Shown here: piece after piece, positions 3,256 through 14,941 of the stretch
How positions within the stretch are numbered: the first letter of the stretch is position 1
Layout of the letters: each line of letters begins with the position of its first letter
Sequence record: PZ242158.1
DNA from: a phage
Length of the DNA: 64,000 nucleotides
Strand: one strand, 5' to 3'
The notes under the pieces: model-generated
Seen by the model: the letters and a program-made list of their open reading frames with translations, nothing else
The model's database searches: none
What the model was told of the DNA's origin: nothing
Translations under genes and position numbers: made by a program

Positions 3256-4296
3256 ATGTCAAAACCTAGTTTTCCATTAGAGATTTGGGCAGAGGAGGAT
3301 CAGGTTCTGCCTAACACCCACAGACAGAACAGGCTACGCCCGATTGATGATTTGTGGAGAAAAGGTTGGGATCTTGGTCAAAAGCCCTCATGTGAAGAAC
3401 TTAACTATATTTTCAATATGCTCGGGACTTGGGCAAAATACATCGCTGACGAGCAGATTCCCGCTCAAGAAGGCCGTTATCTGGTACGTGATAATAACTT
3501 GAGTGATCTTTTGAACATTCCTGTTGCCCGTAGAAACCTTGGGATTATTACTAAGGAAGAGGCAGACGCCAGGTATGTAAAAGTTACAGGTGATACAATG
3601 ACAGGCCCATTGGGTTTGCAACGTATCAACTTTAAAGCTGCCGAGTCAGATAAGGCTTGGATAGAGACAACTATTGGCCCAGATAAGACAACTCTCGACT
3701 TTGGGTTAAGTGATAATACCGGGTCGTTTGATGATGGTGGTACATCTACAGTGGATGCGTTCCGTTGGAGATTCCAGCCAACTCAGCCGGATATTAATCC
3801 AGAGTTCACTTTGATGTACCTTAACGCGATCACGGCTAACCGTGCGCTGTTGAAAGTGGTAGGCAATGTTGAAGTTGTCGATAACATGAGGTGCAATAAC
3901 CTTACTATCAGCAATACAGCGACATTCACCAACTGTAATGTGGCTAGTCAGTTGACGGCTGGGTCAGTGTATGTTAATGGTGGTGCAAGTTGTGACAGTA
4001 TGGTTGTAAGAAGCCAGCACTGTGTTGTCGGTAACAGAAATGTGGTTCGCTCTGTGAACGGAGTGACGGCTAACGGTAACGGTGATGTAACGATCACTAT
4101 CCCGCAGACAGGTGTGCAAGACATCAGAATCGGTGCAAGACTTGTGGACGGAGTTTCTGAATCTCCAATCCGCAACGGCTACGTTGTCACAGGCTGGCAT
4201 TTCGGTGACAAAAAAGAGATGCGTGGTTCAACCTACTGGGCAGGACCTTTACAAAAACTTGTAAATGGTCAATGGATCACTGTTAATTATGCATAG
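3256..4296 (+). CDS. tail fibre protein, paralog A
   Basis: AGGAG SD; blocks LGLQRI, PDKTTLDF, FRWRFQP, LNAITANRA and C-terminus QKLVNGQWITVNYA shared with ORF 5308..6354; fibre-like Gly/Asn/Thr/Val-rich repeats. Confidence 0.6.
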   Translation: MSKPSFPLEIWAEEDQVLPNTHRQNRLRPIDDLWRKGWDLGQKPSCEELNYIFNMLGTWAKYIADEQIPAQEGRYLVRDNNLSDLLNIPVARRNLGIITKEEADARYVKVTGDTMTGPLGLQRINFKAAESDKAWIETTIGPDKTTLDFGLSDNTGSFDDGGTSTVDAFRWRFQPTQPDINPEFTLMYLNAITANRALLKVVGNVEVVDNMRCNNLTISNTATFTNCNVASQLTAGSVYVNGGASCDSMVVRSQHCVVGNRNVVRSVNGVTANGNGDVTITIPQTGVQDIRIGARLVDGVSESPIRNGYVVTGWHFGDKKEMRGSTYWAGPLQKLVNGQWITVNYA

Positions 4297-4310: not shown

Positions 4311-4895
4311 ATGAAAATACTTCAAGAGTTTAAACTTTACCAACCGGGATCTGGCGAATACCGCACCAACAAGGAAACCAAGGAGCTGACCCCTCAAGAG
4401 GTTGAGGATTACACAGCATACACTGGGTATTTTTTACGTAATGATGATGGCGATTGGTATGTGCAGTCACGAACATTACGACAAGAAAATCCGGGGTGTA
4501 TCTTCCTACTTGTTGACGAGAAGGGAATTCTTAAGACATCTACAGAAGAACCTGATGCCTTATGGCCTGCTCCAGGTCTTCGTGTGGTTATCGCCAAAAA
4601 AGAAGAGGTACCAGAAAACATTATGCTTCACCACGACGCTTTGCGTTTAGTTGGTGATGAATTTGTCACAGACAATGAATTCTTTGTTCAACAGGCAGAG
4701 GGTGTCATAGAGACAGAACTTGCTTGGGCTACTGCTAGAATTGGTGCCTATCAAGACATGATTGACCTTGAATATGATCTTACTGATGACCAGAAACGTA
4801 ACATCAGAGATTTGAAAATGTACAGGGTAAAACTTCTTGAAATAGATACATCTAAAGCCCCTGACATTTTCTTCCCGGAGCGACCTACCCTCTAA
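4311..4895 (+). CDS. tail fibre assembly chaperone (Tfa-like)
   Basis: 194 aa directly after tail fibre A; C-terminus MYRVKLLEIDTSKAPDIFFPERP resembles the conserved C-terminal region of lambda/P2-type Tfa proteins (from memory). Confidence 0.5.
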   Translation: MKILQEFKLYQPGSGEYRTNKETKELTPQEVEDYTAYTGYFLRNDDGDWYVQSRTLRQENPGCIFLLVDEKGILKTSTEEPDALWPAPGLRVVIAKKEEVPENIMLHHDALRLVGDEFVTDNEFFVQQAEGVIETELAWATARIGAYQDMIDLEYDLTDDQKRNIRDLKMYRVKLLEIDTSKAPDIFFPERPTL

Positions 4896-5307: not shown

Positions 5308-6354
5308 GTGATGACTAAACCAGTTATCCCTCTTGATATTTGGGCCAATCAGGATGTTGTGCTTGAAAATACGGGAGAGTTGAATAAGTCTCAACCAAAA
5401 AAAGAAGAGAGATTGAAAGGTTGGGATATGACACAAAGAGTGGCATGTGAAGTTGTTAACTTTGAACTTCACATGCTTTCTGCGTGGTTAAAGCATTTAA
5501 CAGAAGATGTTGTCCCGGGATGGGATAATAGATTCTTAAGGGTCACTAATAATCTAGCAGACGTTCCAGACAAAGCTGCTGCACGTCAAGTTCTCAATGT
5601 ATACTCGCCTGAAGAAATGGACGATCTGTATGTTGACAAGTCTGGAGACATAATGACTCAGACTCAAACTTTAGGTCTTCAAAGAATCGAGTTTGCATCT
5701 GCGTCAACAGACAATGCGGCAATATATACCACCATAACTCCAGACAAGACGACGATGGATTTCTGGATTATGGACAACATCGGTGGTGCTGACGGCACAG
5801 ACCTTGATGATCCTTCTCACCAAATAGACGGGTTCCGTTGGAGATTTCAACCTTCTGGTGGGCAGCCTGTGTTTTCGGCTATGAAGCTCAATGCTATAAC
5901 TGCCAACCGTGCAAGACTGGCTATCCAAGGGAATCTTGAATGCAACGATGCAAAAAGTTCCTCTGCAAATGCCAATGCGGTCACGATACCAAGAGCCACT
6001 GTTAATGGACAACAATCCTGCGGAAGCGCTCAAATAGGTGGAAGAGTTGATTGTAACGATGAAACCGTCAGGGGCCAATATGCAACAGTTGGTGGAAGAA
6101 ACGTGGTCCGCAGGGTAAATGGTAACGGCGCAGACAGTAGTGGTAACCTTACTATTCCTATGCCTAGCAGAGGGGTTGATGATGTAAGGATAGCAAACCG
6201 TTTTAAAACCACCTACAGAGAGTCAAGAGTCTACCCTGGACATGTGATGTGCTCTGGTAACTACGCTTATAAACACCCTTATCAAGGTGATTACTGGACA
6301 GGTGCTATCCAAAAACTTGTAAATGGTCAATGGATCACTATATCTTATGCTTAA
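5308..6354 (+). CDS. tail fibre protein, paralog B
   Basis: 348 aa; same conserved blocks as 3256..4296 and near-identical C-terminus QKLVNGQWITISYA. Confidence 0.6.
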   Translation: MMTKPVIPLDIWANQDVVLENTGELNKSQPKKEERLKGWDMTQRVACEVVNFELHMLSAWLKHLTEDVVPGWDNRFLRVTNNLADVPDKAAARQVLNVYSPEEMDDLYVDKSGDIMTQTQTLGLQRIEFASASTDNAAIYTTITPDKTTMDFWIMDNIGGADGTDLDDPSHQIDGFRWRFQPSGGQPVFSAMKLNAITANRARLAIQGNLECNDAKSSSANANAVTIPRATVNGQQSCGSAQIGGRVDCNDETVRGQYATVGGRNVVRRVNGNGADSSGNLTIPMPSRGVDDVRIANRFKTTYRESRVYPGHVMCSGNYAYKHPYQGDYWTGAIQKLVNGQWITISYA

Positions 6355-6641: not shown

Positions 6642-8387
6642 ATGGCGCAAGACATGACAAGCTTTGAGCAGGCGGTAGATCAAGTAATTGTTGATTCTGA
6701 ACGTTTGCACCTGATTGTCAACGGTAACGCTGTGGATGAAGTTGTCGTAGAGGATGGGACCACCATCCCTACGGTACGAAAAGCCATGCTTGACACCCTT
6801 TATTTTAAAACGCCACCGATCCCTTGGGCGTATGGTGCATCCACAACAGTTTTTAACCAGCTGTACGAGTTTAAAGGGGACACAGGCCCTCAGTGGTGGT
6901 ACGCTCCCGCAGCATCAAAATCTAACCCGGTTAGAATGCCAGCAGATCCTTCACAATCTCCAAACTGGAGATTATATACCGATTCTGCAGTAATGGCAAA
7001 ATACTACGCAAAACTTAACAGTCCGAGGTTCGAAGGTGACCCGCGAGTACCTACGCCTCCAATGGACGACAAATCCGAGTCTATAGCAAACACAGAGTTT
7101 GTTGTTGACTATGTGGATAGCATATTTGAAGCCATGGAGGGAATGAAAGTTACTGTAGGGTCTTTGGTGGTAAAAGGTCTTACAGAACTTGCTAACACTA
7201 TAGTTGGTGGCACACTCACCTTACATGGGCCTGTTAATGGAGCAGATTCTACTGCACGCTTCAGGAACCTAATCCTCACGGCAAATACTTCTACACTTAC
7301 TTTTGCGTGGAGTGATCCTAAGCATGCAGACTGGAGAAGCACAGAGCTGCAACCTCATGAAGTGTCCACCCACAGGGTTATAGCTGACACTATAACTTCT
7401 GGGAAACCAGTGGCTAATAATAACGATGTGCATTTTGATGGTCTAGGTAATAACTTTTTTGACTACGTGTACATTCGTGGTAATGCCATGAAGGCAGCAA
7501 CCGAACCGACATTGCAGGTAGATGGAACCACCAGGGTTAAGAACCTTGAGGTGACAGGCACTGTTACAGGGATAACCTACTCTGTCGATGGCACCATGAT
7601 TTACCCTAGCTATATTGAAAGCACGGGGGACGCATTAATAAATGGTGATTTAGAAGTTGGCGGATCTGTAGTTATTCGAGGTACAGCCTCTATCCAAAAC
7701 ATAGCTCTGAATACCCTAAGAGTCAATGAGCGTGCAACTTTTGAAGGGGAAGGGCTTACAGCCAACAAAGGTGTAATTACCGAGCTGACAACCACTACTT
7801 TAACTGCAACAACTGCAAACTCTGAAAACTGCAACGTTACCAGAAACTTGCAGGTAAATGGAGATGTTAGTTTAAACGCAGCAGGGACGGGCACCACCTA
7901 CCTTCACAACCTTGAAATATCCGGCACAGTGACTGGGTGGCTGCCAGACTTCTCTAATGTCAACTTTGTTTGTAATGGCATTAACTCCAGTGGCAAGATA
8001 ACCACCTCTCAAGAAATTGAGGCGGGTAAAACCATCACTGCCCCTACTTTCCACGCAGGAAAGGTAGATTTTGATTTAGAGGAGGTTGACGCGTCCAGTG
8101 GGACATGGACACCTAACGGGCAGGCCAGTATGTATGTTGTCCACGCGAAAGGGGATTTTACAATAGGACAGTGGCCTGGGACATCAGCGGAAGATAAACC
8201 TTATCCATTCACTGCAGTTATCTATGTCATTCAGGATGCTGTAGGTCACAACGTGACTTTGCACGATAAGTATGCTATCCTGTCGGCAACACCTGTTATT
8301 AACAACAAGGCTAACAGTGTTACCTTGCTGCAATTAACGTATTGTGGTGTTGGTGATATTGTAGACGTAGTAATTGCACAACGTTAA
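6642..8387 (+). CDS. tail fibre or tailspike-like protein
   Basis: 581 aa, Thr/Gly/Val/Asn-rich repetitive beta-type composition; SD AAGGAG; in fibre cluster. Confidence 0.5.
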   Translation: MAQDMTSFEQAVDQVIVDSERLHLIVNGNAVDEVVVEDGTTIPTVRKAMLDTLYFKTPPIPWAYGASTTVFNQLYEFKGDTGPQWWYAPAASKSNPVRMPADPSQSPNWRLYTDSAVMAKYYAKLNSPRFEGDPRVPTPPMDDKSESIANTEFVVDYVDSIFEAMEGMKVTVGSLVVKGLTELANTIVGGTLTLHGPVNGADSTARFRNLILTANTSTLTFAWSDPKHADWRSTELQPHEVSTHRVIADTITSGKPVANNNDVHFDGLGNNFFDYVYIRGNAMKAATEPTLQVDGTTRVKNLEVTGTVTGITYSVDGTMIYPSYIESTGDALINGDLEVGGSVVIRGTASIQNIALNTLRVNERATFEGEGLTANKGVITELTTTTLTATTANSENCNVTRNLQVNGDVSLNAAGTGTTYLHNLEISGTVTGWLPDFSNVNFVCNGINSSGKITTSQEIEAGKTITAPTFHAGKVDFDLEEVDASSGTWTPNGQASMYVVHAKGDFTIGQWPGTSAEDKPYPFTAVIYVIQDAVGHNVTLHDKYAILSATPVINNKANSVTLLQLTYCGVGDIVDVVIAQR

Positions 8388-8435
8388 TATATCTAACCGC
8401 TCCTGACGGGGCGGTTTTCTTATCTGGAGAACACA

Positions 8436-11400
8436 ATGCTTCCAATCCCTTTGCTAAAACTTGGTCGTCATTTCCTCGATAAGAGGGGTGGAATTAAGGA
8501 ACTTGCTGTTCTGTCATACCCAATAGACAACAGTGATGGTACAAGCAACACAGTATCCTATGTAAATAGCTTAGCTATACTTTTTGATGATGGTCAGCTT
8601 AATATTACTGGCTATAATAGGTTCGGAGAGTGTCGGACTGGAGATCTTGATACAATAAACTATCCTAATGAGGCAGCTTGGAACGTAGACCATGTTTGGA
8701 GAGCTGACCGTGCATTTGTAATCCGCACATTCGATAATAAATTTTTCTATATTGGTTGCACAGCTGGTCTTATCGGATCGGAGGCAGCAGGTGGAAACGA
8801 TGTTTGTGTCAGAGAGTGGACACCTTTGCCGGAACAGATCGTAACAGGGTTGCATTTGGACACCCATCCTGAGAGACTTGTTGAAGTAATGGGTGGCGTA
8901 AACAATACAGTGTGGGTAATTGCTGCACCAGAGGATGATGGTATGCTTCACCTGTACGGCTCTGGCAATAATACTTACGGCTCTCTTCATGTTGACAAAA
9001 GTCAACACGCTACTCCAGTTAAGATCGGTGAAACATCTGAAAGTCCAGAGACAGGTCCTTGGAAAAATCCAAGAATTAATTGTGAAGTTCATGACAACTC
9101 GGTTATTTTTGGTGGTCCTAACGGATTCTGGATTGCAGGTTACGATTTCTTAAGAAATAACAGCAAAAACACACTAGTTTATCCAGCCGAGCATGTGACT
9201 CTTGACCAGTTTAAAGGCATCCCGGTGGGCGAGACATGGAAAGGATTCATGTGTGGACCTAATGGTGCAATTATAGCCACAGAAAGGATGCACAAACCTG
9301 ATGACCAACAGCTTGTTAATGTGTTTTATGGTCAGGATGTTTGGGGTGACGACACGTGGAGAAGCCTTAACATCACCTATACCCATGAAGTAATTATGGC
9401 TCGCGGGTACGGGACTAGTGGAATTTTCTTCAATAATGGTACAAAACAGTACCGTGGTTTCTCCAGAAACCTGTGTAACGATATTGGTGCTCAATCTGCT
9501 AATAATAGTCCTAGGGCCAATTTTATTCATTACAGAGCGCTGGCAACAGCTAAGTTTGTTGAACAGACAGAGCCAGTAAGCTGGACAGAAAGCGTTTATT
9601 TCCAGGGTATCCACAGAGAAGGTTTCTTAGGGACCTTTACTGTTGTTAATGGCAAACTTTGGTGGTCAGGCATCCCAAGGGGAAGTTTTGCAGGCTCTAA
9701 TAACCTGTTTGGCGGCAGACTTAATAGTCAGGGGTTCACAGAGGTTCCTGAGAATTGGTATAAAAATGTCCCAGTAGACAGTTGGGGCGTTGATGATATT
9801 TTCGACGTTAATGGTGTTAGTAGTGTTAGCAATATCTACATTGGTGACACGGTCAAGATGAAATTGAAGCCTCAGCCAGAGGGGGCTACGTTCATTATTG
9901 ACAAGATTGAGTTGGTAAATGCTGCAGGTACGGTTGTTACAGATGCAAATTACCAATTCTCCACCAACTGGAACCACGGTGGGGCCAACGAAGTTGTTGT
10001 TACCCAGTATAACAGAAATGTTAACAGACGTGGCCTGTACTCTGTAAAAATAACCTATCATGACAAGCATGGCACAGGCAGAACCCATACGACAAGAACT
10101 TTGAACTGGAACACCATAGTTCCTGCGTATCCGTCCAACGGCAAGTGGCATACTGTCGGTAGAAACAAACAGTTCCATGTCAACGATACTGTATACTTCG
10201 GGCTTAACGCAGCTCAACCTGTTGTAGAAGGCGATACATCGTATATGGTACGACTCCATAGAATGGATGCCGGGTCTGTAACCTACGATGTGACTCAAGA
10301 GATCTACGATCAGAGACGTACCACGTATGACAATGTTGTGAAAACACAAGCCTTGTGGGAGTTCAACCCTAACGGCAGAGGCGGTAAAATGTTGCAGGTC
10401 AACGAGCAAAACGGAACATCGTTGACTGTCCATGAACATCCAGATCCTTGGCCTGATCCTGGAAAACCTAACTCTGGGGCTCGTACACTGAAAATTGTCA
10501 GCCATGATGCAGGATATTTCGGAATACGCTGGGAAGCTACAGTAAGATATGTCGACGGGACAACAAACAACATAGGGATTACACTTGGCGGCACTAGTGA
10601 AGATAACTCGCTGAAAATTGCCTACACGCCCAGAGGTATCTCTATTGATAATATGGATGTTGTTCGCAATGGTTACGGCGATGTGAATGTCAAAGTTACT
10701 CTTGGCGAACATCTTGGTGGGGAAAGGATCATCATGTATGCCTTTGATCATGATCCGCGCACCAATGGGACTTATGCAAATCAGGCATGGAGTTACCTGA
10801 TAAATGCACCTGAGCCGAATACTAAAGAGTTCTACTATGGTATGAAGCGAGATGTGTGCAAGAAAACAGGAACACATGACTGGATTGCTATCTGCGTTAA
10901 AGATGAGCGCACAGCTTGGGATGAGCCTGTTAACAGATGGTTCATAGGTATTCCTACCAGAAGTGATAAGTATGTCGCAGAATATATTGTATGCATGGGC
11001 GGTACCAACCTGAACATGTGTTGGAACGAAGATGTAAACAAATACTCTGATTATGACTATATGAGGGATTACTCTTGCAATCTGTGGTTTAACCAAACTA
11101 CAGGTTACCCTCCGCGTCAGGCAAGGGTAAATCCTGCAATCTTTACAGATACTCAGGTTTTCTTGACAAAACAGGCAAACGAGGTTCAGACCTTCAAGAA
11201 TAACTATGACCCTAACAAGTGGTTCTATAATTGTTACGGGGCATACTTTTGGGGGCCTGCTGAACTGCCTGACAGCGGTTCTTGCTTCGAGGCTGCAACC
11301 TACGGCAGCGACTATATCATGGGACAGGTCAAGAAGTACAAGATGATCCCAGGGCCTGAAACTTTAGGTAACGCTGTTGACCCATACATAAATTTCGCAG

Positions 11401-14072
11401 CTTTGCATGCGAATATGGATGGTGCAAGGTATCCGTTCGACGTTCCAGTTGCCAATGGGTACAGACGTGTCGTGATGATTATTAAATGCGATCTGATCGG
11501 AAAGCAAGTTCTTGCAGAAAACGGAACATCCACACATCCTTTTGAAGTTGCTCTGCACTACCAGTTTGCAGACTCACCATATGCGGGAGATAAAAGAATC
11601 TCCGACACAGACTCTAAGCGCTGTAAGAAAGTTTTACTTGGAGCCGGGTGGTGGTGGTACGAGTTTGATTTGACAGATAAGTTCACAGATGATACCAAAA
11701 CTCTCACAGGTATCCGTCTGGACCTTGGTGAAAACATGCACAAAGCTGTTTGTGATGGCACCTACGGTGATCCTACAGTATACTTGAAGTATGTCTCTCT
11801 TGAGCATCCAGAGGATGCCGTAATCGGTCCTAAACTGAAATTGTTCGGCTCATGGATTGCCAAGGATAGGGTAGGAATGGGTAAGAAAGTGAGAGGATTC
11901 CTGATAGACGCAGGGACAGAGGACATGCTGGTTAATGCAGTGTGGCCTACGCTAGAAGGCACCGCCTACAACAATGCAGCCAGGTCTATAAATTGGTTCA
12001 ACATTCACAGGGCTATGTGGACCACTAACTGCTACTTGTGGAGAGAGCTTAACGATCAGGCCTTTGGCTTTAGTGACGGCAGAAGGATGGCGATCATTTG
12101 CTGGACAACATTGCAAAGATGTTATGACCATGACTACGAGATTGGCGGTAGAGCATGGAAAGATATCAGAGATAGGGTTATATACAATTTTGCAGACGAC
12201 AACGGTGGTGGAGCATATAACTTTGGCACAAGCAGACTCATCCATTTGAACGGATCCTCAGCCTACAAGAAAGAAGGTTACTCCGGGTCCATGATCGAGT
12301 GGGGTCTGGTGAAAGATGCTCGTGTATTGATGGGCCAGCAACTTGCTGCTGCAATAGGTCCTAGTGCAGTGCAGTCTGCTAAACCAGCGTGGTTCGATAT
12401 CCCATTATGGTCCTCTGGAACACCAGGAGCTGCTGCAATCAACCCTACCACTGGGGATCTAGAAATCTCCTGGGAAGACCTGAAGCAGGTCGGTGGTTGG
12501 GACAAAACAGGGTATCAGGTTCAATGGTGGAGGGCTGACGGATCTTTAGCCGCTGATGAGTTTGTTAAGGACAATTTCTACACCATGTCCTCTGCAAAAG
12601 CACAGCAATTGTTCGGACAGGCTACTCCGTCAACAATCACCATGTCTATGTGCTGTAAAGACAACAGAACTGGAGCTCTGGGGCCAAGGGTTGCTAAAGT
12701 TTTCTCAGGTATTAAATGGAATCTACCTGTCCAAAGTATTTCATGGAAGCAAATAGGTGATAACAAGCTGCTGGTTACCCCTGCCTGTCAGTTCAACGCA
12801 ACTCTTAACGTTGATCCTGCTGTTGCGGCAAACTCAGCTAAAGCTTCTGACTTCTCTGTGTCTAACACTGCTATGGCAGATGTGAGGAAGATTGACACGC
12901 TGAACGCCAGAATTACCTGTAAAAACACTTATGGCACATTCCAAATCATCAACAACTTCACAGATGCTGATTCTAAGGTAGTGAGGACAGCAAGCCAGAC
13001 TCTGAGTTTAGGAACTCTGGCCTATGCGGCCCTGATCACCGAGCAGTCGGCAACACTCCAAGGAGGTGGTGTAGGCAAGTCCATTGCAACACCTGTGTGG
13101 AAGCCAAATGAGTGGGTTGTGTTTGATTTGACTGTGGACTTCTCCAGCGATAATAACTGGACATGGGTAAGGAATTGTTTGTCACAATTGATGGGAGGTC
13201 CAAGCTCCGTTAGTGATAGTCACGACTCTACTGACCCGAGTGTGTTCCAGGTAGGTAAAACTCACCCAGAGACTGGAGAAACGTTGCCTGACAGGAAGTA
13301 TGCGTTGGTTTGCATCTCTTACGGGAAGGCAGATGTCACCTTCTCAGGGACACACACTTATAACGGAACCTACAACTTCTCAAGGAAGTATAGTCTCAAA
13401 GCAGGGAACATTGTAGACGAGGTTGGTGTGCTGTATAATCCAGGTAACGGCATAGGGATTGTGGGTGGTAAACTGCAGATGCAGGAACCTTCTATTACCC
13501 CTTCCAACGTATCCGGTATTAGAAAGACTTGGGAAAGTAGTAATACCAACATTGCAACAGTGGATGCTGCCACAGGGCTGGTAACATTTAAAGCTACTGG
13601 GAATGTCACCATAAAGTTTGTAGTTACTGATGATGCAGGGCGCAAAACGTCTTCAACATCTTTTACTGTCAAACAGATGGCACCACAGTGGAGAATGTGG
13701 ATAGGTACAGCAACAAACGGGGCATACCCTAATCCGGCAGGTACTTCTGGTATGAAGACTTTCTCTACAAGCAAACCGATGGAGTACGGCAGCGGTCCTA
13801 AGGTAGGGCAGATGGTGTACTTTGGTGCGTATATTCCTGAAATTATAGGGCTTCCTAGAAGTCAGCTTCAGTTGCTGTTTGGGGCTGGTGTTGACGATCT
13901 TGCCACTTTCGGGTATAGCGACAACATCGAGGCTGCAAGGAGTTCAGGATGGGTAGGGTTCAGAATGGAGTCCGGAAAGGAAGGCAGGATTCTAGGGACA
14001 GCCTCTATAGGTGTTATGTTCCCTGGTGACCAGCAGTATCGTCTAGAAGCCTACGCAACCTTTTCTCGTTAA
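8436..14072 (+). CDS. giant fibre/adhesin-like virion protein with bacterial Ig-like (BIG2) domain
   Basis: 1878-aa ORF; near C-terminus SGIRKTWESSNTNIATVDAATGLVTFKATGNVTIKFVVTDDAGRKTSSTSFTV matches the BIG2 Ig-like fold pattern; last gene of structural operon. Confidence 0.6.
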   Translation: MLPIPLLKLGRHFLDKRGGIKELAVLSYPIDNSDGTSNTVSYVNSLAILFDDGQLNITGYNRFGECRTGDLDTINYPNEAAWNVDHVWRADRAFVIRTFDNKFFYIGCTAGLIGSEAAGGNDVCVREWTPLPEQIVTGLHLDTHPERLVEVMGGVNNTVWVIAAPEDDGMLHLYGSGNNTYGSLHVDKSQHATPVKIGETSESPETGPWKNPRINCEVHDNSVIFGGPNGFWIAGYDFLRNNSKNTLVYPAEHVTLDQFKGIPVGETWKGFMCGPNGAIIATERMHKPDDQQLVNVFYGQDVWGDDTWRSLNITYTHEVIMARGYGTSGIFFNNGTKQYRGFSRNLCNDIGAQSANNSPRANFIHYRALATAKFVEQTEPVSWTESVYFQGIHREGFLGTFTVVNGKLWWSGIPRGSFAGSNNLFGGRLNSQGFTEVPENWYKNVPVDSWGVDDIFDVNGVSSVSNIYIGDTVKMKLKPQPEGATFIIDKIELVNAAGTVVTDANYQFSTNWNHGGANEVVVTQYNRNVNRRGLYSVKITYHDKHGTGRTHTTRTLNWNTIVPAYPSNGKWHTVGRNKQFHVNDTVYFGLNAAQPVVEGDTSYMVRLHRMDAGSVTYDVTQEIYDQRRTTYDNVVKTQALWEFNPNGRGGKMLQVNEQNGTSLTVHEHPDPWPDPGKPNSGARTLKIVSHDAGYFGIRWEATVRYVDGTTNNIGITLGGTSEDNSLKIAYTPRGISIDNMDVVRNGYGDVNVKVTLGEHLGGERIIMYAFDHDPRTNGTYANQAWSYLINAPEPNTKEFYYGMKRDVCKKTGTHDWIAICVKDERTAWDEPVNRWFIGIPTRSDKYVAEYIVCMGGTNLNMCWNEDVNKYSDYDYMRDYSCNLWFNQTTGYPPRQARVNPAIFTDTQVFLTKQANEVQTFKNNYDPNKWFYNCYGAYFWGPAELPDSGSCFEAATYGSDYIMGQVKKYKMIPGPETLGNAVDPYINFAALHANMDGARYPFDVPVANGYRRVVMIIKCDLIGKQVLAENGTSTHPFEVALHYQFADSPYAGDKRISDTDSKRCKKVLLGAGWWWYEFDLTDKFTDDTKTLTGIRLDLGENMHKAVCDGTYGDPTVYLKYVSLEHPEDAVIGPKLKLFGSWIAKDRVGMGKKVRGFLIDAGTEDMLVNAVWPTLEGTAYNNAARSINWFNIHRAMWTTNCYLWRELNDQAFGFSDGRRMAIICWTTLQRCYDHDYEIGGRAWKDIRDRVIYNFADDNGGGAYNFGTSRLIHLNGSSAYKKEGYSGSMIEWGLVKDARVLMGQQLAAAIGPSAVQSAKPAWFDIPLWSSGTPGAAAINPTTGDLEISWEDLKQVGGWDKTGYQVQWWRADGSLAADEFVKDNFYTMSSAKAQQLFGQATPSTITMSMCCKDNRTGALGPRVAKVFSGIKWNLPVQSISWKQIGDNKLLVTPACQFNATLNVDPAVAANSAKASDFSVSNTAMADVRKIDTLNARITCKNTYGTFQIINNFTDADSKVVRTASQTLSLGTLAYAALITEQSATLQGGGVGKSIATPVWKPNEWVVFDLTVDFSSDNNWTWVRNCLSQLMGGPSSVSDSHDSTDPSVFQVGKTHPETGETLPDRKYALVCISYGKADVTFSGTHTYNGTYNFSRKYSLKAGNIVDEVGVLYNPGNGIGIVGGKLQMQEPSITPSNVSGIRKTWESSNTNIATVDAATGLVTFKATGNVTIKFVVTDDAGRKTSSTSFTVKQMAPQWRMWIGTATNGAYPNPAGTSGMKTFSTSKPMEYGSGPKVGQMVYFGAYIPEIIGLPRSQLQLLFGAGVDDLATFGYSDNIEAARSSGWVGFRMESGKEGRILGTASIGVMFPGDQQYRLEAYATFSR

Positions 14073-14083
14073 CAAGGGGGTAA

Positions 14084-14116
14084 ATAAAAAAAGGGGCCGT
14101 TTGGCCCCTTTCTTTT
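14084..14116. terminator. bidirectional intrinsic terminator between convergent operons
   Basis: AAAAAAA + AGGGGCC-gttt-GGCCCCT (7-bp GC stem) + TTTCTTTTT; A-run on one side, T-run on the other. Confidence 0.65.
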
Positions 14117-14121
14117 TATAG

Positions 14122-14322
14122 TTAGTAATACTCCCAACATGCCCCATCTTCAGACGGCTTGACGCGCTTACCTTTATGGTCAACATAGGTATAGCCACAA
14201 CCTTCACAAATAACAGGTGCTGCATAGCCTTCCTTCCACTGATCCTCAGTGATCAATCCTTTCAGATCTCCGCAGTCACGACCAAACAACTCTTCAGAAC
14301 AGTCTTTACAAAAATCAGCCAT
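14122..14322 (-). CDS. small zinc-ribbon protein
   Basis: 66 aa with CxxC...CxxC (CKDC, CEGC) spacing. Confidence 0.4.
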   Translation of the reverse strand: MADFCKDCSEELFGRDCGDLKGLITEDQWKEGYAAPVICEGCGYTYVDHKGKRVKPSEDGACWEYY

Positions 14323-14391
14323 CTCTATCAGTCTCCATATTTAACCAATCTATATTACATATTGCCGAAGAAACAGTATTTCATTTCATCA

Positions 14392-14610
14392 TCACAGATC
14401 TCCAACAACTTCCCAAATACCCCAGTGAGCATCTATATCCTTGATAAAGTATCTTTCTCCACGGTTTGTCCACACACCTATCCCAACTTTACCATCTATC
14501 CCATTGTATACATCTGCCTCATACTCTTTGCCCGGTGTAAAGTGTACACCCATCATAAGGGCTGTTATTCCATTAGGATTTTTAAATTTAACAAATTTTA
14601 CTTTGCTCAT
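14392..14610 (-). CDS. hypothetical protein
   Basis: 72-aa ORF packed tightly with neighbours; no motif recognised. Confidence 0.35.
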   Translation of the reverse strand: MSKVKFVKFKNPNGITALMMGVHFTPGKEYEADVYNGIDGKVGIGVWTNRGERYFIKDIDAHWGIWEVVGDL

Positions 14611-14611
14611 A

Positions 14612-14941
14612 TTACTTAATCCTTGCAGTTACAGTAGCGCTATACCCCATGTAGTTATGAGACATAAAGAATGTAAGCCCTTTAAGTTCAGGATTCTTTC
14701 TAAGAAATCGTTTCAATTTTCGAATGCAATTAACACCATGATCATAGTTTGAGAAATTAAATTTAATACCCTGCTCCATCATAGTGCACACTTCTTCATG
14801 GGTATGCCATTGTCTATCGTGGTCACAAAACCAGTAACCAATACCTTCTTTTTCTTGGATATGCAATCCCCAAAATACTTTATGCATTGGATATTTTGGT
14901 TTTCTACCATGATAATGTAGTTTAATATTCACATGTGCCAT
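14612..14941 (-). CDS. hypothetical protein (His/Cys-rich)
   Basis: 109-aa ORF, stop-start abutting downstream gene; no motif recognised. Confidence 0.4.
   Translation of the reverse strand: MAHVNIKLHYHGRKPKYPMHKVFWGLHIQEKEGIGYWFCDHDRQWHTHEEVCTMMEQGIKFNFSNYDHGVNCIRKLKRFLRKNPELKGLTFFMSHNYMGYSATVTARIK

Follow-up and report, generated by a model that had tools for sequence, protein, structure and literature searches.

The window analysed here (64,000 nucleotides of phage DNA; sequence record PZ242158.1) carries a complete gene at 8436..14072 on the + strand, which begins with ATG and encodes 1878 amino acids (~208 kDa) according to the ORF listing and translation. Two observations support the start codon: a Shine–Dalgarno motif read from the sequence, GGAG at 8426..8429 (+), 6 nt before the ATG, and an N-terminus, M-x-P-I-P-L, that is invariant across the rV5 gp27 family. 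The next-largest ORF encodes 809 aa; no gene in the window exceeds this one in size, as originally predicted. The protein matches phrog_15684 (PHROG 15684) collinearly over its full length (1-1878/1878, 4494 bits). The whole gene shares 91.5–95% nucleotide identity, over its full length, with >100 Vequintavirus records, and 110 phage records span at least 80% of it at 80–95% nucleotide identity. On sequence comparison the window is DNA of an rV5-like Vequintavirus, an E. coli phage, and rV5 gp27 is orthologous to the 1878-residue protein. The counterparts rV5 gp27 (YP_002003529), LL12 gp27, bas53_0040 and bas54_0041 are 1875–1878 aa in length with 91–95% nucleotide and ~91–95% amino-acid identity (92.7% amino-acid identity for bas54_0041 of Bas54), occupy the same position and are followed by the same terminator; the window copy differs from them only by allelic mosaicism. 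The gene is already catalogued, its product appearing in public genome annotations as an 'Ig-like domain protein' or 'lateral tail fiber protein with intimin domain', and the Ig-like domain had been correctly spotted in a gene already annotated.

The gene is the last + strand member of the baseplate and tail-fibre cluster. All genes upstream in the cluster are baseplate or tail-fibre genes on the + strand, and those downstream are small, convergent and on the − strand, matching the annotation of rV5 and the BASEL phages. Gene order is identical in P0015, a relative of 45% identity. A terminator scan and RNA folding place a Rho-independent terminator hairpin, flanked by an A-run and a T-run, at 14090..14111; it also serves the convergent − strand genes, and the rV5 annotation has a bidirectional terminator at the equivalent position. 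This arrangement bears out the earlier claim that the gene ends the structural operon. A GC-rich hairpin followed by TTTTCTT lies at 8395..8416 (+), between the upstream fibre gene, whose stop codon ends at 8387, and the ATG at 8436 (terminator scan; RNA fold dG −16.7 kcal/mol, z −3.6). All six Vequintavirus loci compared carry this 22-mer without a change. It is possibly an attenuating terminator or an RNA-stability element, and a conserved hairpin just upstream of the gene would fit lowered expression and a low copy number of the giant protein.

The best-conserved part of the protein, by the identity profile over the family, is an N-terminal module of residues 1–445 (8436..9770, +). Residues 1–207 (nt 8436–9056) are common to Phapecoctavirus (tblastn, 39% identity, E 1e-22), and the module has ~31% identity with Salmonella and Cronobacter phages in tblastn comparisons. 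The N-terminus of the window protein scores 20.5 bits (E 3.3e-4) against Pfam WD40_RLD (PF25390), under the cut-off of 150, and this RLD model is matched by 12 of the 16 members of the gp27 family. Two distant homologues, ESCO13 gp245 and the metagenomic P0026, exceed the gathering score of 21.7 bits for RCC1 (PF00415), with 24.0 and 25.8 bits, respectively, and are collinear with the window protein at residues 1–191 and 381–440. A PDB search with the N-terminal family profile gave no match at all, RCC1 structures included. These profile matches suggest that residues 1–445 probably form an RCC1-like β-propeller, presumed to be the virion-attachment module; in other Vequintavirinae, RCC1-like proteins have been confirmed in virions by mass spectrometry.

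Residues 450–840 (9783..10955, +) are variable and β-rich. The Pfam family PF16403 (Bact_surface_Ig-like) has weak matches at residues ~506–560 in relatives only, with zero Pfam matches to the window's own segment; probably these residues are Ig-like sandwiches, a weak assignment. Further along, the AlphaFold2 (AF2) model of residues ~940–1125 (11253..11810, +) predicts a β-jelly-roll resembling a carbohydrate-binding module (CBM), which overlaps an internal allelic hot spot. It is followed by what we term the orphan core, residues ~1127–1325 (11814..12410, +), the second most conserved stretch of the protein. The core contains the motifs GTEDMLVNAVWP, SINWFNxHRAMW and EGYSGSMIEWG; Glu1162–Asp1163, His1191 and Glu1288–Trp1289 are examples of its invariant acidic and aromatic motifs. 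Pfam, NCBIfam and the PDB yielded no family for it, and an exhaustive HMMER search of residues 840–1450 against 1.84 billion representatives returned three matches, all from its own family. The AF2 model of residues 840–1450 has a mean pLDDT of 49, falling to ~30 in the core, where helices are predicted at very low confidence; the model is unusable there and we therefore draw no conclusion on its fold.

A series of β-sandwiches (Ig-like) follows at residues ~1330–1675 (12423..13460, +), identified by AF2 and Foldseek, with pLDDT values of 64–79 for residues 1330–1440, low values for 1440–1529 and 50–88 for 1530–1675. Pfam Big_2 (PF02368) matches residues 1682–1733 (13479..13634, +) far beyond chance, with an E value of 1.1e-8 and 35.3 bits compared with a gathering cut-off of 22.8. 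The corresponding model domain, residues ~1679–1749, is an all-β sandwich with pLDDT 85–97. The peptide on which the prediction of a BIG2 domain near residue 1690 was based, SGIRKTWESSNTNIATVDAATGLVTFKATGNVTIKFVVTDDAGRKTSSTSFTV, sits at residues ~1692–1744, and both the domain and its Ig-like fold are confirmed by the Pfam score and the model. In Foldseek searches the C-terminal model matched tandem Ig/cadherin-like arrays and S-layer proteins with probability 1.0, and also Hoc-like and Ig-tagged phage tail and head proteins. PDB sequence searches found intimin and the Sap S-layer protein over the Ig domain (E ~3e-3), and nothing beyond these Big_2-level matches when the protein and family profiles were used. 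Membership of the intimin/invasin family itself, whose full architecture comprises LysM, a β-barrel, Ig repeats and a C-type-lectin-like tip, was rejected: the NCBIfam intimin model NF033627 gives 22.2 bits where its cut-off is 1400, and it matches residues 1696–1734 only. The model suggests an Ig-like string at residues ~1530–1749, of which Big_2 would be the last bead.

The protein ends in a β-rich domain, residues 1750–1878 (13683..14069, +; AF2 pLDDT 48–86), which is the most divergent part among orthologues. Allele compared with allele, it shows 44–76% identity, against 94–100% directly upstream, and the amino-acid changes fall into four patches. At the nucleotide level 75 records group at ≥90% identity and 37 at 80–90%. 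Judged from these alignments, there are two deeply diverged terminal-domain alleles in Vequintavirus, an rV5 type and a MaxBurger type; the window copy combines the 'rV5-type' terminal domain with its own variant of the hot spot at residues 951–1250. DrSchubert has a frameshift within the terminal domain region. Sliding dN/dS values of 0.03–0.17 over residues 1–1700 indicate purifying selection, and therefore that the gene is maintained and useful in nature. For the last 84 codons the apparent value is 6.17. We rejected this value: between alleles 39 of the 84 codons differ by synonymous changes only and 23 carry replacements, and the high ratio is an artefact of synonymous saturation, because saturated between-allele pairs fell out of the dS mean. 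The sliding dN/dS along the gene gives no evidence of positive selection.

Several known proteins provide a useful comparison. ESCO13 gp245 (891 aa), a 'tail protein' from a Phapecoctavirus, and P0026 share a homologous N-terminal module (37–39% identity over residues 1–207) and, like the window protein, possess Big_2 domains. ESCO13 gp245 is syntenic, being the last gene of its tail cluster, but is half the size of the window protein. Missing from it are the CBM-like domain, the orphan core and the terminal domain; it has instead a C-terminal part like the RcGTA head-spike fibre that is absent from the window protein. The Big_2 β-sandwich, on the evidence of the HMM and the model, is of the kind seen in T4 Hoc, Ig-tagged major tail and head proteins and intimin/invasin; here, however, the Ig domain is one bead in a chain of 1878 residues and not an appendage of a capsid or tube protein. 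Phage phi92, with its multi-fibre baseplate termed a 'nanosized Swiss army knife', follows the same locus logic, with several co-expressed fibre or spike genes (gp150, a colanidase, gp151 and gp152) after the baseplate genes. The window N-terminus has no significant similarity to phi92 gp150 (E 8.5) or gp152 (E 0.48), and only the first residues, MYPIPL, are common to gp152 and the window protein. The resemblance between gp27 and the phi92 gp150 N-terminus that the LL12 paper states was accordingly not reproduced. A collection of 5.8 billion proteins, searched with the full-length query and with C-terminal and N-terminal profiles, returned only the protein's own small family and fragments, and for this reason deep alignments could not be assembled.

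The claim that this is a virion protein has modest published support: in the MudPIT virion proteome of rV5, gp27 (locus 27) is represented by three peptides and nine spectra (3.1% coverage). The orthologue bas54_0041 tolerates disruptive transposon insertions, with K-12 infection and the production of infective virions persisting. Both the presence in the rV5 proteome and the dispensability on K-12 are taken from the literature. On K-12 the receptors of these phages are ascribed to enterobacterial common antigen (ECA) and the LPS core, by way of other fibres. The suggestion that the protein is the primary host-range determinant is not upheld by these data; since it is dispensable on E. coli K-12, a gp27-type protein is a candidate accessory adhesin and not the main determinant of host range. 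The Ig-like array and the predicted CBM-like jelly-roll make a glycan-adhesin role plausible.

The designation 'fibre' is likewise putative. Searches of Pfam and PHROGs, and the AF2 models within residues 840–1878, revealed no coiled coil, triple β-helix or C-terminal Peptidase_S74 chaperone domain. No assembly chaperone gene adjoins 8436..14072, the following genes lying on the opposite strand, and cryo-EM of Bas49/Bas54 and of phi92 leaves the gp27-type protein and its relatives unplaced. These features weigh against a trimeric lateral tail fibre on the baseplate that would be the decisive receptor-binding protein on particular capsulated or O-antigen-bearing hosts rather than on K-12, as does the predicted architecture, since propellers, Ig beads and jelly-rolls are types usual in monomeric chains. 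Such a fibre would be consistent with the BASEL label (lateral tail fibre), the position of the gene as the last of the fibre locus, its allelic variation and two terminal-domain alleles, and the HIDEN-SEQ observation that Bas54 depends on some of its lateral fibre genes conditionally, in a host-specific way, on UPEC isolates. The variation of gp27 is, however, only moderate next to that of two other fibre genes, and we regard this explanation as possible but rather unlikely.

Were the protein a fibre of the head or neck, or an adhesin for the environment (mucus) similar to T4 Hoc, it would influence persistence and not infection, in keeping with a gene that is dispensable for plaque formation. 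The C-terminal part of ESCO13 gp245 resembles the RcGTA head-spike fibre (6tb9, E 5.7e-14), phi92 gp140 and gp151 are reported to be similar to the head spike of phage Pa223, and among the matches to our C-terminal model, head and decoration proteins that bear Ig domains come up no less readily than tail proteins do. Against this, the window protein is without the RcGTA-like domain, its gene stands at the end of a baseplate and tail-fibre cluster, and the literature consulted describes no head fibre in any rV5-like phage; we consider this assignment improbable. Little probability likewise attaches to the idea that the orphan core is a catalytic domain, for example one that degrades or deacetylates polysaccharide, with the Ig-like and CBM-like parts targeting it to its substrate. 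A CBM-like neighbour is an arrangement found in many glycoside hydrolases, adjoining fibre genes of these phages bear glycosidase or deacetylase domains, and the high conservation and invariant Glu, Asp, His and Trp residues could belong to an active site. That conservation is equally compatible with a structural or oligomerization role, and the core shows no likeness to Pfam, NCBIfam or PDB entries and no relatives among the 1.84 billion representatives, with a model that is unusable. A more speculative picture, to which we give scant credence, is of a monomeric 'tentacle' of ~15 domains on an RCC1-like propeller anchor, in which the orphan core would be a new fold or a new glycan-active enzyme, and purifying selection would reflect hosts or niches that have not been sampled.

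We favour, with some reserve, the explanation that the rV5 gp27 orthologue is a low-copy, non-essential virion-associated protein, an optional distal adhesin on an N-terminal anchor. What this analysis showed directly is the orthology and synteny of the gene, its Big_2 domain, the pattern of conservation and the existence of two terminal alleles. The protein would be a long chain of mostly β-rich domains, in which the probable RCC1-like propeller (residues ~1–445) may dock it on the particle. The remainder would project outward, comprising the CBM-like jelly-roll, the orphan core, the Ig-like string with Big_2 and the allelic terminal domain. In phage receptor-binding proteins conservation typically falls off from the N-terminus towards a variable distal part, as it does here, and we counted this pattern in favour of the adhesin model for that reason. 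Through weak, multivalent binding the distal parts may engage surface polysaccharides, either those of some hosts or those of the environment; gp27 would then give a multi-fibre 'Swiss-army-knife' one more, optional way to adsorb and would not be the primary receptor-binding protein.

Therapeutic and food-safety cocktails often include phages of the rV5 type, whose breadth is put down to the multi-fibre adsorption apparatus. That K-12 infection does without the largest 'fibre' gene, although it is conserved under purifying selection, gives work on that apparatus a focus. The gene product has an anchor-like N-terminus, a CBM-like hot spot and a bi-allelic tip.

The ORF at 8436-14072 on the + strand (ATG start, 1878 codons) is the largest gene in the window, as originally predicted; the runner-up in the 64-kb window encodes only 809 aa. 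We consider the start sound because GGAG lies 6 nt upstream of the ATG and an N-terminal M-x-P-I-P-L is invariant among all relatives of the giant protein. The gene is the final member of a + strand baseplate/tail-fibre cluster, and its predicted position at the end of the structural operon is borne out: a hairpin-plus-T-run terminator (14090-14111) directly follows, beyond which transcription goes over to the - strand. Just past the terminator, a + strand ORF of 147 aa (14176-14619) has no PHROG match; related phages have annotated - strand genes opposite it, and it is unlikely to be a real gene. Two short-tail-fibre paralogues (phrog_4465; 3256-4296 and 5308-6354) lie on either side of a gene for a tail-fibre assembly chaperone (phrog_136; 4311-4895); this duplication of the short-fibre locus is known in Vequintavirus.

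The window derives from an rV5-like Vequintavirus, a roughly 137-kb myovirus of E. coli. More than 100 records match the giant gene from end to end at 91.5-95% nucleotide identity, including rV5 gp27 (YP_002003529, 'Ig-like domain-containing protein'); BASEL phage orthologues are annotated 'lateral tail fiber protein with intimin domain', and PHROG 15684 matches positions 1-1878 of 1878. The gene is therefore already known and annotated, and its product belongs to the rV5 gp27 group. The MaxBurger orthologue, bas54_0041 (MZ501093, 42024-47651), shares 92.7% amino-acid identity. The family has few members: searching 5.8 billion proteins with the full-length sequence gave 15 clusters. Across the N-terminal 76% of the protein, 13 of these show 45-58% identity, and they diverge more toward the C-terminus. 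The most divergent relative, 45% identical, nevertheless lies in a fully syntenic locus. Within the phage collection, the last 289 aa are confined to Vequintavirus (about 117 records).

Some database entries deserve comment. The whole gene is matched by 15 or 16 'Campylobacter phage' records (e.g. MG065654, MG065666 and MG065635; stated host C. jejuni), in which it is 92-93% identical to E. coli rV5-like phages. The DNA polymerase region gives the same picture, and these records look like Vequintaviruses with a doubtful host attribution. Near-identical fragments of the protein (database matches P0027 and P0022) are filed under the names 'hypothetical protein, partial [Eggerthella lenta]' and 'Ig-like domain-containing protein, partial [Escherichia coli O79:H4]'; they probably stem from phage contamination or carry-over in bacterial assemblies.

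The N-terminal module (aa 1-445) is the most conserved part, 70-80% identical even in distant relatives. From sequence comparisons we infer an RCC1-like propeller. The window module alone falls under the cut-off of the Pfam RCC1-like domain model (E 3.3e-4), which is matched by 12 of 16 family members. The Phapecoctavirus protein ESCO13 gp245 and a metagenomic relative, P0026, exceed the RCC1 repeat gathering score (24.0 and 25.8 bits versus 21.7) and match the RPGR and HERC2 RCC1-like domains in the PDB; P0026 is collinear with aa 1-191 (E 2e-27) and 381-440 (E 3e-5) of the window protein. The family profile found no solved RCC1 structure in the PDB. RCC1-like proteins are virion components confirmed by mass spectrometry in another Vequintavirinae genus. 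The first 207 aa or so also occur in the 891-aa Phapecoctavirus 'tail protein' (39% identity, E 1e-22) and, at about 31% identity, in Salmonella and Cronobacter phage proteins. Like the giant gene, ESCO13 gp245 (L007 9001-11676) is the last of its tail cluster. It shares the MYPIPL start with the window protein and with phi92 gp152 (L008 16321-16929, 202 aa), which is without the propeller region; phi92 seems to have this last gene in a form with a deletion or a split (gp152 and gp153).

A variable beta-rich stretch follows (aa 450-840), with weak Ig-like hints in relatives. For aa 840-1450 no relatives outside the family were found among 1.84 billion representative proteins, and the AlphaFold2 model is poor overall (mean pLDDT 49), with predicted beta-sandwiches at aa ~940-1125 (pLDDT 62-88; CBM-like) and ~1330-1440 (pLDDT 64-79). 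The core between them, aa ~1127-1325, is second only to the N-terminus in conservation (motifs GTEDMLVNAVWP, SINWFNxHRAMW and EGYSGSMIEWG), is modelled at a pLDDT of about 30 and matched no family in searches that included NCBIfam.

The predicted BIG2 domain near the C-terminus is bona fide. The quoted peptide is present, and Pfam PF02368 matches aa 1682-1733 (E 1.1e-8, 35.3 bits versus a gathering score of 22.8). The model of aa 1440-1878 (mean pLDDT 69) shows successive beta-sandwiches, then Big_2 (pLDDT 85-97) and a beta-rich terminal domain (aa 1750-1878; pLDDT 48-86). Foldseek matched it to tandem Ig/cadherin-like arrays, NUP210, S-layer proteins and the phage SU10 tail, and among viral models to Ig-bearing tail, head and Hoc-like proteins. 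Models and matches therefore support an Ig-like fold, the absence of which the original prediction had named as grounds for rejection. Intimin membership was rejected (22 bits versus a cut-off of 1400), and the similarity to phi92 gp150 given in the LL12 paper was not reproduced.

A comparison of six intact Vequintavirus orthologues gave dN/dS values of 0.03-0.17 for aa 1-1700; dS varies in a mosaic fashion, indicating recombination. One protein-level hot spot (aa 951-1250; 72-86% identity) overlaps the CBM-like domain. The other is the terminal domain, with two alleles (44-76% identity per comparison window) split roughly 2:1 by records and differing mainly in four patches; saturation of synonymous sites accounts for a spurious dN/dS of 6.17 in the last such window. 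The DrSchubert orthologue (bas50_0041, L003 437-6063) is annotated at only 1818 aa because the deposited sequence has a frameshift inside the terminal domain, the remainder of which is still encoded in the downstream frame. Either the phage, which is viable, carries a naturally truncated protein or the sequence contains an error; the frameshift is consistent with dispensability of the protein.

The 48 nt that separate the giant-gene ATG from the preceding fibre gene contain a GC-rich hairpin with a T-rich tail (8395-8416; dG -16.7 kcal/mol, z -3.6), unannotated in the rV5 record. All six Vequintavirus loci examined have the same 22-mer, although the flanking genes vary. The hairpin could act as an attenuator of giant-gene transcription, and a low copy number of the protein would agree with that.

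Among the readings considered, an accessory virion appendage of low copy number has the most support. In the MudPIT proteome of rV5 virions, locus 27 (1878 aa, 208,334 Da) is represented by three peptides and nine spectra (3.1% coverage); the running text of that paper omits it. Disruptive transposon insertions are tolerated in bas54_0041 (HIDEN-SEQ preprint), which is therefore dispensable for K-12 infection and for infective virion formation. These transposon data contradict, for K-12, the proposal of a candidate primary host-range determinant, which is weakened too by the stronger variation of other fibre genes. According to Maffei et al. (2021), gp27 is the last of the large lateral tail-fibre genes, its alleles vary moderately, and K-12 recognition (primary receptor ECA, terminal receptor LPS-core glucose) is attributable to other fibres.

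The protein might instead be a receptor-binding fibre that acts conditionally, on particular hosts; the HIDEN-SEQ preprint reports that certain lateral fibre genes of Bas54 become essential on uropathogenic isolates. In cryo-EM of Bas49/Bas54, only three of the nine annotated fibres had density, and one fibre is still without assignment in the 2026 phi92 structure. Pfam, PHROGs and the two modelled segments (aa 840-1450 and 1440-1878) revealed no fibre-forming elements in the giant protein, and it has the kinds of domain seen in single-chain 'beads on a string' proteins. An association with the head or neck, or a role in mucus adhesion, draws on the resemblance of the Phapecoctavirus homologue's C-terminus to the RcGTA head spike and on a remark by the phi92 authors about gp140 and gp151. 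Alternatively, the orphan core could hide an enzyme.

The original interpretation is partly supported. To the existing annotation we add a domain map, and we draw attention to the conserved orphan core and to the tip with its two alleles. In an accessory appendage, the conserved N-terminal docking module would bear a chain of glycan-binding-type beta domains with the allelic tip at its end. The adhesin role first suggested is plausible: the appendage would add an optional adhesion route, probably weak and multivalent, to the multi-fibre apparatus.
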